Positions 54,527 through 60,528 of a stretch of DNA of 64,000 nt are shown in pieces. A program made the translations under genes and the position numbers. Location: the IMG/VR virus record IMGVR_UViG_3300027969_000094, one strand, 5' to 3'. Origin of the DNA: an uncultured virus (IMG/VR IMGVR_UViG_3300027969_000094). Lineage: Duplodnaviria > Heunggongvirae > Uroviricota > Caudoviricetes. Position 1 is the stretch's first letter; the number at the start of each line of letters is the position of its first letter. Under the pieces are notes generated by a model that was not told the origin of the DNA, searched no databases, and was given only the letters and a program-made list of their open reading frames with translations.

Positions 54527-54795
54527 TTATACCCACCACCAGCCGCCTTATATTTTTTAGCTACTAGTTGCGCTTTACGAGCCGACCACTGACCTGCGCC
54601 AGTACCCTGTGTTGCAGCTGCTTTAACTTGAGAAACTATACGTTTACGCATTTCTGGTTTTGTGTAATTACCAGCCTCATTGACCGTGCCGCCTTCTTTA
54701 TACTGTGTAAAGTCAGTATTATCACGGCGAGCTTTTTTGACGCCGTTAGGCATCTTTGACGGAGAAATTGCGCCCATACCTCTGCTTGGTCTCAT
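54523..54795 (-). CDS. Small basic protein
   Basis: YKEGGTV...NYTKP...GQWSARKAQL...YKAAGGGY. Confidence 0.7.
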   Translation of the reverse strand: MRPSRGMGAISPSKMPNGVKKARRDNTDFTQYKEGGTVNEAGNYTKPEMRKRIVSQVKAAATQGTGAGQWSARKAQLVAKKYKAAGGGYK

Positions 54796-54983
54796 GCTCT
54801 TGTCTTTCCACGAACGCAGCAGCCATCTGCACGGGCGGAAGCAGATTTAACCTTACCGCCAGACTTCATTCCTTTGGATGCTTTTTCTACATCCTTATAG
54901 TCTTTGTATTTAGAAGAAGTAGTTCCTGTTTTAGACATACCTTCCTCAAACATTTCAACTATTTTTGGTGCCATAAATCCCAT
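54792..54983 (-). CDS. Small basic protein, shares C-terminus with 54986-55351
   Basis: MKSGGKVKSASARADG...RGKTRA. Confidence 0.65.
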   Translation of the reverse strand: MGFMAPKIVEMFEEGMSKTGTTSSKYKDYKDVEKASKGMKSGGKVKSASARADGCCVRGKTRA

Positions 54984-54985
54984 AA

Positions 54986-55351
54986 CTAAGCCCTCGTCTT
55001 TCCACGAATTGCAATACCGTCTGCACGGGCAGAAGCGGATTTAACCTTACCACCAGACTTCATAGCTCTTGGGTTTGTAATGCTTTTTAATTCTGCAGCG
55101 CCCGAATTACCACCAAACCCACCAGATGTTGGGCCTGTTCTTGGTCCTGTATCTGAATAAGCCTTGCCAGTATATTTAGGTTCAGCTCTAGTTGTTTCAG
55201 CCATCTTACTTATTTCAGCCTTAGCCCTATCAGATTTAGCTTTTTCTAAATCTTCATCAAACTTTCCAGGACCATGCTTTGGCTTGGCTGGATACTTCTC
55301 CTGCCCATCACCGTCAGTCTTTTTAGAAGGATCTACAGGCTCAATTGGCAT
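54986..55351 (-). CDS. Small basic protein, shares C-terminus with 54792-54983
   Basis: MKSGGKVKSASARADG...RGKTRA. Confidence 0.65.
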   Translation of the reverse strand: MPIEPVDPSKKTDGDGQEKYPAKPKHGPGKFDEDLEKAKSDRAKAEISKMAETTRAEPKYTGKAYSDTGPRTGPTSGGFGGNSGAAELKSITNPRAMKSGGKVKSASARADGIAIRGKTRA

Positions 55352-55537
55352 TTAGCAAGCTCCGCCGCCCATCATCTTAATCATTTTGCCTTTGGTGTGA
55401 CCTTTAGTTACACAGCCGTCAGCACGAGTTACGCCGCCTTTAGCCATACCATGCATCTTTTTCTCATGAGTAGCAACTTCTTGCTTAGCTACTTTTTTCA
55501 TCATTGGCATATCTTGTTTAATATCATCGTGTTTCAT
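55352..55537 (-). CDS. Small basic protein
   Basis: MAKGGVTRADG...KGHTKG. Confidence 0.65.
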   Translation of the reverse strand: MKHDDIKQDMPMMKKVAKQEVATHEKKMHGMAKGGVTRADGCVTKGHTKGKMIKMMGGGAC

Positions 55538-55539
55538 AG

Positions 55540-55680
55540 TTAGCAAGCCTTTCCGCTTTTAGTTGTTTTCTTAGCTACGCCGCCTTTTTTCATAGGCATT
55601 GCAGCGCCTTTAGCTGGCTTTTTACCAGCAGCTTCTTTTTTCTTTGCAATCATTTCCATAAATGGGTTTGGCTTTTTCAT
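55540..55680 (-). CDS. Small Lys-rich protein (46 aa), not in ORF track
   Basis: MKKPNPF...MKKGGVAKK; fills gap exactly. Confidence 0.6.
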   Translation of the reverse strand: MKKPNPFMEMIAKKKEAAGKKPAKGAAMPMKKGGVAKKTTKSGKAC

Positions 55681-55926: not shown

Positions 55927-56171
55927 CTCTTTAAAGAGGCAGCCTTACGAGTAGGGCGACCTTTTTCATCTTTCATTGGGCCTGGCATACCAGACATCCT
56001 AGCGCAAAAAGACTTTTTACGAGGACCACCTTCAGGCTGTGGAGCCTTTAGATTCGAGCCAGTAGCTGCATTATACTTAGCACGACCTTTGGCGGTAAGC
56101 CCAGCGCCCTTAGATACAGGCAACTTTTCACCACGACCAACCGCAAGGGAGGGACCTTTTTTCTTAGCCAT
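55914..56171 (-). CDS. Small basic conserved phage protein
   Basis: GLTAKGRAKYN..TGSNLKAP...RKKSFCARMSG...WKC. Confidence 0.75.
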   Translation of the reverse strand: MAKKKGPSLAVGRGEKLPVSKGAGLTAKGRAKYNAATGSNLKAPQPEGGPRKKSFCARMSGMPGPMKDEKGRPTRKAASLKRWKC

Positions 56172-56454
56172 GGAAAACTGTTACCGCTGCGTTGGTTGGT
56201 AAATTTACATACACACCATTATTAAACCTAATACCTTCACCAGGTATTAATGTAGAAATAATAGCTGTGTTTACAGTAATATTTATTTTTAAACGCTCAG
56301 TACCCGAAGCAGAATTAGCTGCAGTGTCATAAAAAATAATTTCACCAGCGGTTCCACCAGAAGCTACTTGATACCCTTTAATTCTAGTAGGACCAATAAT
56401 AAGTTGAACGTCTCCATCTGCATGCGCTGCTTGTACGTCATATTGCATACCCAT
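56164..56454 (-). CDS. Hypothetical virion protein
   Basis: GGAG RBS; IPGEGIRF..GVYV motif. Confidence 0.7.
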   Translation of the reverse strand: MGMQYDVQAAHADGDVQLIIGPTRIKGYQVASGGTAGEIIFYDTAANSASGTERLKINITVNTAIISTLIPGEGIRFNNGVYVNLPTNAAVTVFHG

Positions 56455-56479
56455 AATTAATCTCCAAAAAAAGTTAAGA

Positions 56480-56503
56480 TGAGTTAGGGAAAACCCTAAC
56501 TCA
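56480..56503 (-). terminator. 10-bp perfect hairpin, possible terminator
   Basis: tgagttaggg-N4-ccctaactca, T-tract a few nt downstream on minus strand. Confidence 0.55.
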
Positions 56504-56512
56504 CAAGATTAA

Positions 56513-56965
56513 TTAAGTATTGCCAGTGCAAAGAACCATTTGGCTTGCAGCCCAAGGAGCGTCAGGATTACCGTTGCCGCCGTACTCAACAGCATAGCCA
56601 GCAGGTAAAACAACGCCATCTGCGTCCAAGTTAACACGTTGGAATACGCCAGCAGATGTCTGATAACCAGCTAAAACGTGGGCAACTGCGCCATAGTTCA
56701 AAATAAAACCACGTAGACCAGCATAGTTAGGATCTGCGTTAGTAATGCTAAAGGCTTGACCGTTGGTTGTCTGTACTAAAGGCAAAGTTAAAGTAACTTC
56801 ACTAGCAGGACCGCCATCAGCAGGTGAAAGAATAAGGACTTGTGAACCAGCAGTAATAGGAATTACGTTGCTGTATTGGGCAGCTAACGCTGAAGTAATG
56901 TAAATAATAGGCTGTGCAAAACCGTTAAGCGATCTGACGGGGCCTGTAAAAGTGGTAAATGCCAT
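56513..56965 (-). CDS. Probable capsid-associated protein (MAFTTFTGPVRSLNGF)
   Basis: AAGGA RBS before ATG 56965; directly after major capsid. Confidence 0.65.
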   Translation of the reverse strand: MAFTTFTGPVRSLNGFAQPIIYITSALAAQYSNVIPITAGSQVLILSPADGGPASEVTLTLPLVQTTNGQAFSITNADPNYAGLRGFILNYGAVAHVLAGYQTSAGVFQRVNLDADGVVLPAGYAVEYGGNGNPDAPWAASQMVLCTGNT

Positions 56966-56974
56966 GATAAATTT

Positions 56975-57050
56975 TCCTTCATACAAAGTTCAGCTTATTA
57001 GTCTTGTATGCGTCTGCTGGGGCAGTCTAATAAGCGGGTAACACCCAGAT
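56975..57050 (-). ncRNA. Candidate structured cis-regulatory RNA (pseudoknotted)
   Basis: 9-bp stem GCUUAUUAG/CUAAUAAGC, inner hairpin, loop CAUACAA complementary to UUGUAUG next to the RBS. Confidence 0.55.
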
Positions 57051-57070
57051 ATTTAAATCTTACTACAAAT

Positions 57071-57100
57071 AAAACAAAAAGGGGGGATTTCTCCCCCCAA
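57071..57100 (-). terminator. Terminator after major capsid gene
   Basis: gggggga-gaaa-tcccccc followed by TTTTTGTTTT. Confidence 0.85.
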
Positions 57101-57103
57101 TTT

Positions 57104-58012
57104 TTAGGCTCCTTGGGAACCCCACATACCTAGTGGATCTGACCAGCCAAAGCTATAACGCTCACGAGACTTGTAACGTACGTTACCTGTATCGAAGTCA
57201 CCATCCATAGAATTCTGGAGTGGTGTACGAACGAAATGCTTCATACCGTTTGGAACATCAGTTGTCAAGAACCATGCGTTTGTGTCGGTCAAGAAGTGGT
57301 TAATTGTGTAACCTTCTGGAATCGAGCCATTGTTCTTAATTGCGTTGATGTCGTTATCAGCTGTACCAACACGCAGTTCAGTTTCGAGCAAACGAGTTGC
57401 AACGAACTGTAATGATGGAGGGACAATCATCTTCTTAGGTTTAGCAGCGATCAACAATGAACGCTCGTCAGTCCACAAAGAGATTTGAATAACAGCGGCT
57501 TCCAAAGAAGTCTCATTCAAGTCTGATGGGGTTGCTGGGATGTTACTGTTGGTACCACCAGAAACCAATGGGTGATCGTTAGCAAACAATGCAACACCGT
57601 CACCACCTGGGTAGCTAGCGTTAAAGCCATTGTTGATAACAGCAGCACCACGAACTTGCTTGGTATACGCCATGGAACGAGCTAAAGCCTTGGTATAACG
57701 AGCAGACAATGAGTCATACAAGTTATCTTCAATTGCTTCTTCGGTCAGAGAGAAACCCTGAGCGATCGTTACGTGTGTATAGCGAGCAGTCCATGCTTCT
57801 TGCCCGTTGTCATAAGCGATTGCGGAGCCTTCGTTTTTAACTGGGGCAGCACTAAAGCCAGACAATTTGGTTTCTTCTTCGAAGGAACGCTCAGAGGATT
57901 CAGTTTCGTAAATCTCGTTAGTTTCTTCACCATACTTTGCATACTCAAGTCCGAACAATGCGTTCAAGCCTGGGAGCAACTCTTTCAGTAGTTGTGCGCG
58001 TGAAATAGCCAT
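57104..58012 (-). CDS. Major capsid protein
   Basis: MAISRAQLLKELLPGLNALFG..., 302 aa, biased codon use, follows portal/scaffold, ends at strong terminator. Confidence 0.85.
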   Translation of the reverse strand: MAISRAQLLKELLPGLNALFGLEYAKYGEETNEIYETESSERSFEEETKLSGFSAAPVKNEGSAIAYDNGQEAWTARYTHVTIAQGFSLTEEAIEDNLYDSLSARYTKALARSMAYTKQVRGAAVINNGFNASYPGGDGVALFANDHPLVSGGTNSNIPATPSDLNETSLEAAVIQISLWTDERSLLIAAKPKKMIVPPSLQFVATRLLETELRVGTADNDINAIKNNGSIPEGYTINHFLTDTNAWFLTTDVPNGMKHFVRTPLQNSMDGDFDTGNVRYKSRERYSFGWSDPLGMWGSQGA

Positions 58013-59120: not shown

Positions 59121-60098
59121 TTAGGCCTCCAATTTATTAAGTTCACGGGCATACTGCTCAGGGCTTAAGCCAAACTTTTTAGCCAAAGCCACTTGCGTTT
59201 TTGTCAATACAATCTTTTTTGAAGATGTACTGCGTCTTGCAGGCGCTACGACCGTACTCAACCTAGATGTACGTTGAGGCTTTTCTTCCTCATCGTTTTT
59301 TACTTCAATGTCGTCGAATTCTTCTGGAAAGCGACGTTGTACTTCTGTGTCAATACGTTTGAAATATTCATCCGTACCAACAAATGCTCTACCAAACTTT
59401 TCTTCAAGCTCCTCATGAATAAATACAGCATATTTACTCATTGATTTCTTGTCTGGATCAACGTACCAGGGGTTGTTTGACACCCATTCAGCAACTTTAT
59501 CATCCATCTGTGCAGGCTGCTGAGACTGCTTAGTTTGTATTTTTACATCATTTTCAGCAATTTGTACAGTAGGTTTGAAATTTTTTGCTTTGTCAAGTTT
59601 AAGTTGCGCCCGCATCATATCTTCTTGAGCTTCTGCTAATGCATCAGAATCCCCAGAATCGTACGCTTCTTTGTACGCTTTTCTTGCCTGTGCCGCTTCT
59701 AACTCAGCAGAGTTTTGGTAGCTAGAAATTAACTCTTTCTCGCCACTTTGCAGGACTTCTTTTAGACGCCGATTCTCATCTAAGATTGATTGCGCCGCTG
59801 CCAAAGCCTCTTGTTGTTCACGTAAAGCTGCTTCTTTTGCCCTACGCTCGTCATGCCAAGCTTTTTTATATTGTGTAAACTTATCCTTTACATTTTTAGA
59901 GTATTCTGCAGACGAATCAGCAGTTTCTAAGTCTTTTTTGATGTCATTAGGTAAAGGTTCTACGTTCCGATCCTCTTTAGGGGTATCGTCAACAATCTCA
60001 ACGTTTATCGAGCCTTCTTCTAATTCATCTACGGGTTTACCCTTAGTTTCTTCCATCTCGTCAGGAAATTGAAAGTCATCTTTTTGCATTTCAGCCAT
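59121..60098 (-). CDS. Probable scaffolding protein
   Basis: Acidic coiled coil, C-terminal LTKTQVALAKKFGLSPEQYA; position. Confidence 0.7.
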   Translation of the reverse strand: MAEMQKDDFQFPDEMEETKGKPVDELEEGSINVEIVDDTPKEDRNVEPLPNDIKKDLETADSSAEYSKNVKDKFTQYKKAWHDERRAKEAALREQQEALAAAQSILDENRRLKEVLQSGEKELISSYQNSAELEAAQARKAYKEAYDSGDSDALAEAQEDMMRAQLKLDKAKNFKPTVQIAENDVKIQTKQSQQPAQMDDKVAEWVSNNPWYVDPDKKSMSKYAVFIHEELEEKFGRAFVGTDEYFKRIDTEVQRRFPEEFDDIEVKNDEEEKPQRTSRLSTVVAPARRSTSSKKIVLTKTQVALAKKFGLSPEQYARELNKLEA

Positions 60099-60108
60099 GT
60101 TTTATCTC

Positions 60109-60528
60109 CTAGATAAATTTGCGTTTAATGCCGCGTGGGTCTTGTACAACAGCTTCCACGGAGTCGTCATTAATTATGCGGAACTCACGGTCATGTATAA
60201 CTAGACGTGTGCCCGCGTTTGGTCGAACCAGAATAAAGTCGCCCTTTTTGCACCAAGGCCCAGTTGGATAGCGCTCAGGATCTTTATAGCAATCTTCACC
60301 TAAGTCAACTACAAATAGAACAGTGGTTAAAAGTTCATCAGTTCTAATTAATTCATCAGGTTTAAGAATGCCAGACTCAAACTCTTTTTCAACTTCGGGA
60401 ATAGCACAAAGTATTCTGTAGCCTTTCGGTGTAGGAAGTTGTTTGGCTCTTTCTTCTACTTCTTTATTCAATATTGCACTTAAATCTACTGCTCTGGTTA
60501 AATCTACCGCTGTCTGTTGGTCACTCAT
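60109..60528 (-). CDS. GroES/Cpn10-like co-chaperonin
   Basis: P.GYRIL...SGIL...GPWCKKGD...Y/AG...RIINDD.V.AVV. Confidence 0.75.
   Translation of the reverse strand: MSDQQTAVDLTRAVDLSAILNKEVEERAKQLPTPKGYRILCAIPEVEKEFESGILKPDELIRTDELLTTVLFVVDLGEDCYKDPERYPTGPWCKKGDFILVRPNAGTRLVIHDREFRIINDDSVEAVVQDPRGIKRKFI

Follow-up and report, generated by a model that had tools for sequence, protein, structure and literature searches.

A conserved double-pseudoknot mRNA leader upstream of a putative capsid-surface protein gene in aquatic phages

In Escherichia coli, the leaders of the alpha-operon and rpsO mRNAs are pseudoknotted translational operators that are bound by a ribosomal-protein repressor (S4 and S15, respectively), and these folds can still be bound by the 30S subunit. 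The threonyl-tRNA synthetase (ThrRS) leader is a further operator of the type described for S15, S4, and T4 gp32. In the case of T4 gene 32, a single H-type pseudoknot located far upstream of the Shine-Dalgarno (SD) sequence nucleates cooperative binding of the single-stranded DNA-binding protein, and translation is autoregulated. The preQ1-I/II, SAM-II/V, and fluoride riboswitches have SD-adjacent pseudoknots, precede metabolic or transport genes, and have known ligands. To our knowledge, hardly any studies outside T4 have addressed structured leaders on the mRNAs of phage virion genes. Here, we describe an RNA element in a 64,000-nucleotide stretch of DNA from an uncultured virus of the Caudoviricetes (IMG/VR record IMGVR_UViG_3300027969_000094; from here on, the window). 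The element is located on the minus strand at 57048 to 56980, between the terminator of the major capsid protein gene and the next gene (from here on, gene X). As proposed in the original prediction, which was made from the DNA letters alone, it is a double-pseudoknot RNA tied to the ribosome-binding site of gene X, and we find that both of its pseudoknot helices covary among relatives.

Like the S4 and S15 leaders, the element is a pseudoknotted mRNA leader involving or adjoining the ribosome-binding site (the knot ends at 56980, and the SD starts at 56979), and like the alpha-operon leader, it is a double pseudoknot. While the SD and start codon lie inside the knot in the S4 and S15 leaders, they lie 3' of it in the window, and these leaders and the element have no sequence or model similarity (no Rfam match). 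With the T4 gene 32 leader, the element shares a 5'-proximal pseudoknot on a phage mRNA of the late or structural type; it differs in being a double pseudoknot that abuts the SD of what is probably a capsid-accessory gene. The T4 gene 32 pseudoknot is also without an Rfam model according to the text of PMC10690425. As in the SD-adjacent riboswitches, the 3' strand of a pseudoknot can enter the first SD bases, and a conserved core carries a variable 3' platform; unlike these riboswitches, the element precedes one virion gene only and has no match in Rfam. The element is a new RNA family, absent from Rfam, of a kind that is already known, the pseudoknotted mRNA leaders.

Both pseudoknot helices covary

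The element and the adjoining ribosome-binding site consist of the following parts:

57044 to 57048, minus strand: segment A (CUGGG), 5' strand of pseudoknot 1, which pairs with A' (CCCAG, 57021 to 57017)
57036 to 57046, minus strand: optional local hairpin P0 (GGGU, 57046 to 57043; ACCC, 57039 to 57036), which competes with A:A' (−4.4 kcal/mol)
57027 to 57035, minus strand: 5' strand of the 9-bp closing stem B, GCUUAUUAG, which pairs with CUAAUAAGC
57014 to 57026, minus strand: junction A57026 and hairpin C (CUG, 57025 to 57023; CAG, 57016 to 57014), whose 6-nt loop C-CCCAG holds A' (57021 to 57017)
57003 to 57013, minus strand: junction ACG (57013 to 57011) followed by D (CAUACAAG, 57010 to 57003), 5' strand of pseudoknot 2, which pairs with D'
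57002 to 57004, minus strand: AGA, conserved junction ahead of the 3' strand of B
56993 to 57001, minus strand: 3' strand of B, CUAAUAAGC, which forms 9 bp with GCUUAUUAG
56980 to 56992, minus strand: linker UGAAC (56992 to 56988) and D' (UUUGUAUG, 56987 to 56980), 3' strand of pseudoknot 2, which ends directly at the SD
56963 to 56979, minus strand: SD AAGGA (56979 to 56975), a 9-nt spacer, and AUG (56965 to 56963), from the sequence and the open reading frame (ORF)

In this fold, stem B closes a junction holding the 3-bp hairpin C and strand D, and two pseudoknots are interleaved (helix order A-B-C-A'-C'-D-B'-D'): the loop of C pairs with segment A upstream of B, and D, CAUACAA(G), pairs with D', (U)UUGUAUG, downstream of B, with the SD beginning at the next base. 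A possible fourth pair of hairpin C, C57022-G57017, competes with A:A'. All pairings listed in the original prediction, i.e., the 9-bp stem, the small hairpin, A:A', GGGU/ACCC, and D:D' at the SD, are present on the minus strand. Its argument that so many pairings are unlikely to arise by chance did not hold for the window alone, in which the nested minimum free energy fold (−20.3 kcal/mol) has a z score of −1.41 and 15 of 200 shuffled sequences fold equally well. With a z score of only −1.41, we rejected single-sequence folding as proof of the structure. In energy bookkeeping, B and C contribute −8.6 kcal/mol (−13.0 kcal/mol including the local hairpin), and the duplexes A:A' and D:D' contribute −6.7 and −6.1 kcal/mol, respectively.

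The same argument did hold by comparison. Database searches identified 144 homologs of gene X, all labeled hypothetical, of which 47 were used to build alignment A1, and we fetched 46 metagenome loci encoding clear gene X relatives together with 65 viral loci matching its N-terminus only. The 170 nt upstream of the gene in 44 loci have the same architecture in different sequences, e.g., helix B is GCCCGUC/GACGGGC and helix D is AUGCACA/UGUGCAU in L079, helix A is CUAGG/CCUAG and helix D is UUAUAG/CUAUAA in L081, and segment A is GGAAG with the loop CUUCC in L082. When 36 distinct relatives are aligned with plain MAFFT, 80.1% of the cells of the four-helix structure are paired compared to 33 to 43% with slid partners, 19 of the 24 pairs vary on both sides, and none of 500 shuffles reached the covariation score. 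The compensatory changes that were to be sought among homologs are, therefore, present.

A covariance model, R1, was built from helices B and C only; A:A' is not in the model. R1 detects a single copy in the window with 86.6 bits (E value of 8e-17; the second-best score is 13.9 bits), and this score is partly circular because the window sequence is included in the R1 seed alignment. As an independent check on the family, relatives found by protein or by pattern share the layout. The window has all features that define the R1 family, i.e., A:A', B, C, D:D', the junction nucleotides A/AC/AGA, and a 3' end at the SD and AUG of a MAxTTFSGP ORF. Among the 65 distant viral loci, R1 matches end exactly at the ATG in 47 (E value of ≤0.01).

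In the R1 alignment of 76 distinct sequences, A:A' pairs in 84.8% of cells (94.7% in a further model alignment), and 4 of its 5 pairs vary on both sides (UA 34 and CG 25 at one pair; GC 27 and AU 25 at another). Helix B pairs in 89.6% of cells with all nine pairs varying on both sides, and hairpin C pairs in 95.2% of cells with the variants CUG/CAG, CAG/CUG, and CCG/CGG. D:D' is only 50% paired on this alignment because subfamilies are out of register. In an alignment-free comparison of 148 distinct sequences, D:D' forms at least 6 contiguous bp in 78% compared to 33% with permuted partners and occurs as ~46 different sequence pairs; A:A' forms at least 5 contiguous bp in 94% compared to 43% with permuted partners. 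Wobble pairs occur often and in both orientations (one pair of B has 17 UG, and one pair of A has 11 GU), which assigns the structure to the gene-strand RNA. The unpaired junction nucleotides A, AC(G), and AGA are conserved across relatives with GC contents of 30 to 60%; of 129 parsed sequences, 125 have the junction A, and approximately half of these were preselected by a pattern fixing that A. We conclude that both pseudoknot helices covary and that the RNA knot is real and evolutionarily conserved.

The local hairpin P0 is present only in some clades (CCGGG, CCAGG, CCGAG, and UCGGG types) and absent from the largest group (CUAGG), and its family-wide mean length is 3.73 bp compared to 3.26 bp for shuffled linkers. 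Because it is clade-specific, we rejected P0 as a universal switch arm.

Setting and distribution of the leader

The window derives from the genome of a short-tailed phage, in which the genes in the capsid region are on the minus strand. This region has ~67 to 69% DNA identity to Phage DSL-LC04 and the Pelagibacter phages HTVC027P and HTVC023P. The following features surround the element:

57104 to 58012, minus strand: major capsid protein gene, 302 amino acids (ORF; Pfam PF25209 Phage_capsid_4, E value of 7e-12; phrog_371 major head protein, E value of 3e-20)
57071 to 57098, minus strand: intrinsic-terminator-like hairpin GGGGGGAGAAAUCCCCCC with a U-run after the capsid gene (stem 57098 to 57081; tail TTTTTGTTTT)
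57057 to 57062, minus strand: −10-like hexamer TAAGAT, 5 nt before model position 1 and with no matching −35 (weak; from the loose scan described below)
56513 to 56965, minus strand: gene X, 150 amino acids (MAFTTFTGPVRS...), an ORF directly downstream of the element
56479 to 56504, minus strand: terminator-like hairpin directly past the gene X stop codon (11-pair stem; tail CTTAACTTTT)

The stop codon of the capsid gene is at 57106 to 57104, upstream of the element. Because terminator-like hairpins lie on both sides of gene X, this gene is a bracketed one-gene unit. A match to the small RNA (sRNA) PrrB_RsmZ at 57073 to 57207 (minus strand), which covers the 3' end of the capsid gene and the terminator, was rejected as sub-threshold (22.4 bits compared to a gathering score of 44); this and other Rfam matches at 57066 to 57207 are explained by the GC terminator hairpin and U-run and not by an sRNA.

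Further along the minus strand at 54792 to 55546, at least three adjacent small basic ORFs (63, 121, and 64 amino acids) have near-identical C-terminal tails (…KSGGKVKSASARADG[CI][CA][VI]RGKTRA; looser form …GGVTRADGCVTKGHTKGK). Downstream of the head genes, these ORFs form a tandem family of small proteins rich in lysine, possibly internal or ejection proteins. In DSL-LC04, HTVC027P, and phage 023Pt_psg01, a gene annotated as co-chaperonin GroES is located upstream of the head genes and is followed by a gene for an ~320-amino acid acidic scaffold-like protein; in the window, a 139-amino acid ORF (60109 to 60528, minus strand) and a 325-amino acid ORF (59121 to 60098, minus strand) appear in the same order.

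The leader is tied to one gene family. Among the R1 matches from the pattern scan described below, 72 had at least 60 downstream codons in the fetched DNA, and all 72 precede a MAxTTFSGPVxSxNGF-like ORF. Of the N-terminal residues, F6, G8, and P9 are conserved in 67, 68, and 67, respectively, of 71 distinct ORFs, and the mean ungapped identity in the family is 0.58 for residues 1 to 16 and 0.12 for residues 21 to 60. The third codon position has an entropy of 1.3 to 1.95 bits at the conserved N-terminal codons except Phe6 (0.89), while positions 1 and 2 are fixed. This high third-position entropy supports that the N-terminus is conserved at the protein level; the alternative that its conservation reflects RNA structure was rejected because third positions are nearly saturated at most of the conserved codons.

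Searches of Pfam, PHROGs, the PDB sequences, and a protein atlas with gene X and relatives gave nothing usable, including no Pfam or PHROG family, and tblastn with gene X against 50,697 deposited phage records gave no match at 1e-3. An AlphaFold2 (AF2) model of gene X has a predicted local distance difference test (pLDDT) score of 89.6 and a predicted template modeling (pTM) score of 0.81, with residues 1 to 19 as a low-confidence arm and a beta-rich body. While Foldseek with this model against the PDB gave no match at an E value of ≤1e-3, VIA-align matched it to beta-sandwich accessory domains that phage tailspikes and baseplates carry, as well as to the distal domain of the Pa223 capsid spike (Z scores of 10.0 to 8.2, root mean square deviation of 2.2 to 3.1 over 90 to 98 residues; the next, unrelated matches have a Z score of 3.8). 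The gene at the equivalent position in DSL-LC04 is annotated as "cement protein" and shares only the first 12 residues with gene X; a match of the DSL-LC04 protein to an "Rz-like spanin" PHROG (E value of 6e-4) was rejected as not credible at that position. Based on the fold likeness of the model and the position after the capsid gene, gene X probably encodes an accessory protein of the capsid surface (spike, decoration, or cement-like), in which a conserved arm serves as the anchor and the outer domain can be swapped.

A comparison of gene X (56513 to 56965, minus strand) with L118 to L197 indicates that the leader forms a single conserved module with the first ~16 codons and that the remaining protein is exchanged among widely differing sequences. 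The exchanged bodies include a type with GNVTG-type repeats and a MDDFTG-containing type. This pattern resembles an exchange of outer-domain cassettes in a capsid-surface protein.

The four-helix layout is present in the 148 distinct sequences, which are from lake and ocean phage contigs. Among them are DSL-LC04, an assembled phage, and the cultured SAR11 phage HTVC027P, in which the layout was recognized by eye. Scanning IMG/VR by sequence only, with a 17-base degenerate core pattern, gave at least 120 matches, of which 80 loci were fetched, and 79 of these have an R1 match. With the identical pattern, only 6 of 80 loci from bacterial and archaeal genome contigs have an R1 match, supporting that the signal is carried by the model and not by the pattern. 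The six latter contigs, from metagenome-assembled genomes (MAGs; L238, L244, L247, L252, L254, and L279), carry genuine leader copies and belong to bins from unrelated phyla (Chitinophagales, Ignavibacteria, Microbacteriaceae, Kordiimonadaceae, Gammaproteobacteria, and Chloroflexota). They are probably mis-binned phage contigs and, therefore, give no host information.

In DSL-LC04, which is described in PMC10611076 as a metagenome assembly annotated with HHpred, R1 has a match of 50.6 bits (E value of 3e-9) directly upstream of the coding sequence following the capsid gene. In HTVC027P, the R1 score is only 17.4 bits; by eye, all four helices are present upstream of gp62, including A (CUGUA/UACAG), B (GUUUACAUAG/CUAUGUAGAC), and D (CCUAG/CUAGG). 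Phage 023Pt_psg01 has a covarying A helix, CUAUA/UAUAG. Contigs from RNA libraries match the element and then diverge at 56971 and 56980 into other gene X alleles (in reverse complement, M-A-Q-T-T-F-S-G-P and M-S-S-T-T-F), indicating that one lake sample contains several phages with the same leader and different accessory genes.

The element has no match among the families of Rfam. A search of window positions 56000 to 58000 with the 4227 models of Rfam 15 (cmscan with permissive filters, E value of ≤10) gave nothing meaningful over 56963 to 57051, the only match over the element being HOTTIP_2 with 7.6 bits compared to a gathering score of 80. Similarly, 12 diverse relatives had no Rfam match on the element at an E value of ≤1. 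In PMC10690425, 8,495 candidate phage RNAs from IMG/VR (the DNAVirus_N set) are listed, which, like the element, are covarying intergenic phage RNAs directly upstream of a gene. The motif is not described in the text of that paper, and its tables, as distinct from its alignment archives, contain neither the four 16-nt core strings nor the six sample numbers searched for; the motif may still be one of its numbered candidates.

Possible functions of the leader

The fold is established by the covariation; its function we infer. In the explanation that we favor, to which we assign a probability of approximately 45%, the element is a cis-acting translation and stability leader of the capsid-accessory mRNA with a fixed, high output. 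Such a leader would act on initiation and on the life of the mRNA, and it would bury the 5' end of the transcript in structure. With D' in the knot, local pairing of D' with the SD and AUG would be avoided, and the SD would be presented beside a rigid helix, with the folded core clamped to the 5' edge of the ribosome-binding site. As a result, the unit behind the capsid terminator would give a fixed, high yield of a protein required in quantities like those of the capsid protein. It is reasonable to infer that the leader sets the ratio of the gene X protein to the capsid protein.

The upstream context is consistent with a leader at the 5' end of the message. A scan with loose criteria covered the 141 elements for which 70 nt or more of upstream sequence was available. 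In 77 of them, a −10-like hexamer precedes the model start by 2 to 10 nt, and many also have a good −35 (e.g., TTGACA-17-TATAAA in L071 and L077); in 23, no −10 is seen and a GC hairpin is located within 12 nt, and 41 have neither feature. The −10-like hexamers and adjacent hairpins support a position of the element at the 5' end of the gene X message or close to it. At the window element, a consensus promoter scan identified 0 sites; relatives such as L110 have TTGCAG-16-TAAGAT at the equivalent place.

The 3' end of D' is located 9 to 18 nt before the AUG in most of the 148 sequences. In the window and close relatives, D' adjoins the SD, and in the window subtype, the SD core is unpaired; for this reason, we lean toward a permissive or enhancing role combined with protection of the 5' end. 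When D' is blocked in a model of the window, the unpaired probability of the SD-AUG stretch increases from 0.54 to 0.79. The linker between the 3' strand of B and D' (56988 to 56992 in the window) is often UUAAC followed by UUU in relatives (e.g., L102), which resembles the A/U-rich translational enhancer in the leader of T7 gene 10; searching the literature with this motif yielded no useful result.

In HTVC027P, the gene X homolog gp62 is classified as late, and the mean numbers of transcripts per million at the last time point are 79,173 for gp58, 74,585 for the capsid gene gp59, 11,866 for gp60, 36,186 for gp61, 28,568 for gp62, and 9,428 for gp63 (PMC12753301, Table S3). Accordingly, gp62 mRNA in this table is at 0.38 of the level of the capsid gene, 2.4- to 3-fold above gp60 and gp63, and below the 40-codon gp61; these mRNA levels say nothing on translation. 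In the RNA-library contigs, the capsid gene is covered deeper than gene X, but the contigs show no ends, strand, or level, and DNA may be present.

Several observations weigh against a leader that enhances translation and stability. First, D' covers two to three SD bases in large subgroups (UUUCGUAAG|GAGG; CUAGG|AG in HTVC027P). Second, D:D' is missing in 20 of the 148 sequences, in which the SD is within a small hairpin, an arrangement that looks repressive rather than enhancing. Third, the modeled family-wide gain in SD/AUG accessibility is small, from 0.561 to 0.610 compared to 0.586 with a control block; blocking D' gave 34 gains and 10 losses, and the control block gave 15 gains and 4 losses. 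We therefore rejected the pseudoknot as a general unmasker of the SD and AUG, for which there is only a weak family-wide trend. Fourth, the 23 promoterless elements directly behind a hairpin imply that 5'-end capping is not universal unless the RNA is processed. Fifth, the excess of gp62 mRNA can be explained by a promoter alone, and gp61, which is upstream of the predicted promoter, is also high in Table S3 (36,186). Finally, a simple 5' hairpin would be enough for stabilization, and the conserved junction and complex topology therefore suggest specific recognition. Among the sequences lacking D:D', one form has the D strand xGCCAAGA, whose GCCA or UGCCA could pair with (A)UGGC(A) at the start, and another has the D strand ACUUACUCCAAGA, in which CUCC is complementary to the SD GGAG; these pairings are 4 to 5 bp only, with no covariation by which to judge them. 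Thus, in differing ways, the strand that exits the junction is always directed at the initiation region, and the leader may act in either direction, raising or throttling initiation.

In the rival that fares best, a possible but less probable explanation, the element is a regulated translational operator or a riboswitch-like sensor. The junction would bind a trans-acting factor, and binding would either stabilize or block the pseudoknot beside the SD and switch ribosome loading. The candidate factors are a phage or host protein, possibly the gene X protein or another capsid protein, or a small molecule. The unpaired junction A, AC(G), and AGA, which are conserved across relatives of widely differing GC content, fit such a binding site, as does the variable "expression platform" on a constant core, in which D' abuts the SD, D' overlaps the SD, the SD is in a hairpin, or D is complementary to the start codon. 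Moreover, several clades have a further copy of A' immediately 5' of B as a third segment, which gives A two mutually exclusive partners, and this alternative partner covaries (CCAGG/CCUGG, CGAG/CUCG, and GGGU/ACCC). The exclusive tie to one gene family, with co-conservation of the N-terminal 16 residues (0.58) compared to residues 21 to 60 (0.12), is also in agreement with an operator. No ligand or binder is indicated, however, and the gene is structural rather than metabolic. P0, which would be the competing arm, is absent from the CUAGG group and barely enriched (3.73 compared to 3.26 bp), the SD core is never paired in the window subtype, and the conserved N-terminal peptide has one basic residue only and is conserved as protein and not as RNA.

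Like riboswitches, the element has a conserved, covarying aptamer-like core, but not the association with one metabolic or transport theme, since all 72 readable ORFs belong to a virion-type family. Alternative structures are restricted, P0 to some clades and the D'-SD overlap to some subgroups. The riboswitch-like and ribozyme-like functions suggested in the original prediction found no support: the element occurs only before one structural gene family with no ligand suggested, and no known ribozyme class in Rfam matches it. The regulated operator remains as the possible, if less probable, alternative to a fixed-output leader.

It is also conceivable, but improbable, that accessory protein that is not on expanded capsids, or another capsid component, binds the junction and represses its own translation. 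If so, feedback would meter the decoration protein against the capsid surface, as ribosomal proteins are metered against rRNA. Such assembly-coupled feedback would explain why the RNA stays with the N-terminal arm even though the remainder of the protein is freely exchanged.

We consider it very unlikely that the element is a self-cleaving ribozyme or a ribonuclease processing signal that splits the gene X message from the capsid message. The compact double-pseudoknot topology and the conserved junction nucleotides are compatible with this, and for the 23 of 141 elements directly behind a capsid-gene hairpin and with no promoter, a new 5' end might come from cleavage. However, the hepatitis delta virus (HDV)-like, twister, pistol, hatchet, and hammerhead models are absent from the Rfam matches of the window (E value of ≤10) and the 12 relatives (E value of ≤1). 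The HDV-like helix order is nested and differs from the A-B-C-A'-C'-D-B'-D' order of the element, and in 77 of 141 cases a −10-like hexamer would already make a 5' end. In addition, two RNA-library contigs are unbroken across the terminator into the element, X11 record 2 to 57003 and X9 record 28, a close variant with 8 letters differing, through the whole element into gene X; this is a weak point because the contigs show no ends.

Least likely is a role outside translation, either in transcription (antitermination or attenuation) or as a repeat at the DNA level: the element is directly behind an intrinsic terminator, but downstream and not upstream of it, there is no U-run after stem B, the 3' boundary tracks the SD and AUG in every relative, and the G·U pairs make the element strand-specific. 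The remaining probability goes to something else.

Implications

The leader is widespread in aquatic phages, with at least 120 matches in IMG/VR from a narrow pattern scan, and its fold is unusually intricate for ~85 nt. Because HTVC027P is a cultured SAR11 phage with infection transcriptomes, the leader is directly testable. If it binds a factor, it would represent a translational operator of a new class in phages. Should it determine how much of a capsid-surface protein is made, it would be a compact, portable translation-control module and also a marker for fast-evolving capsid-surface genes in some of the most abundant aquatic phages.

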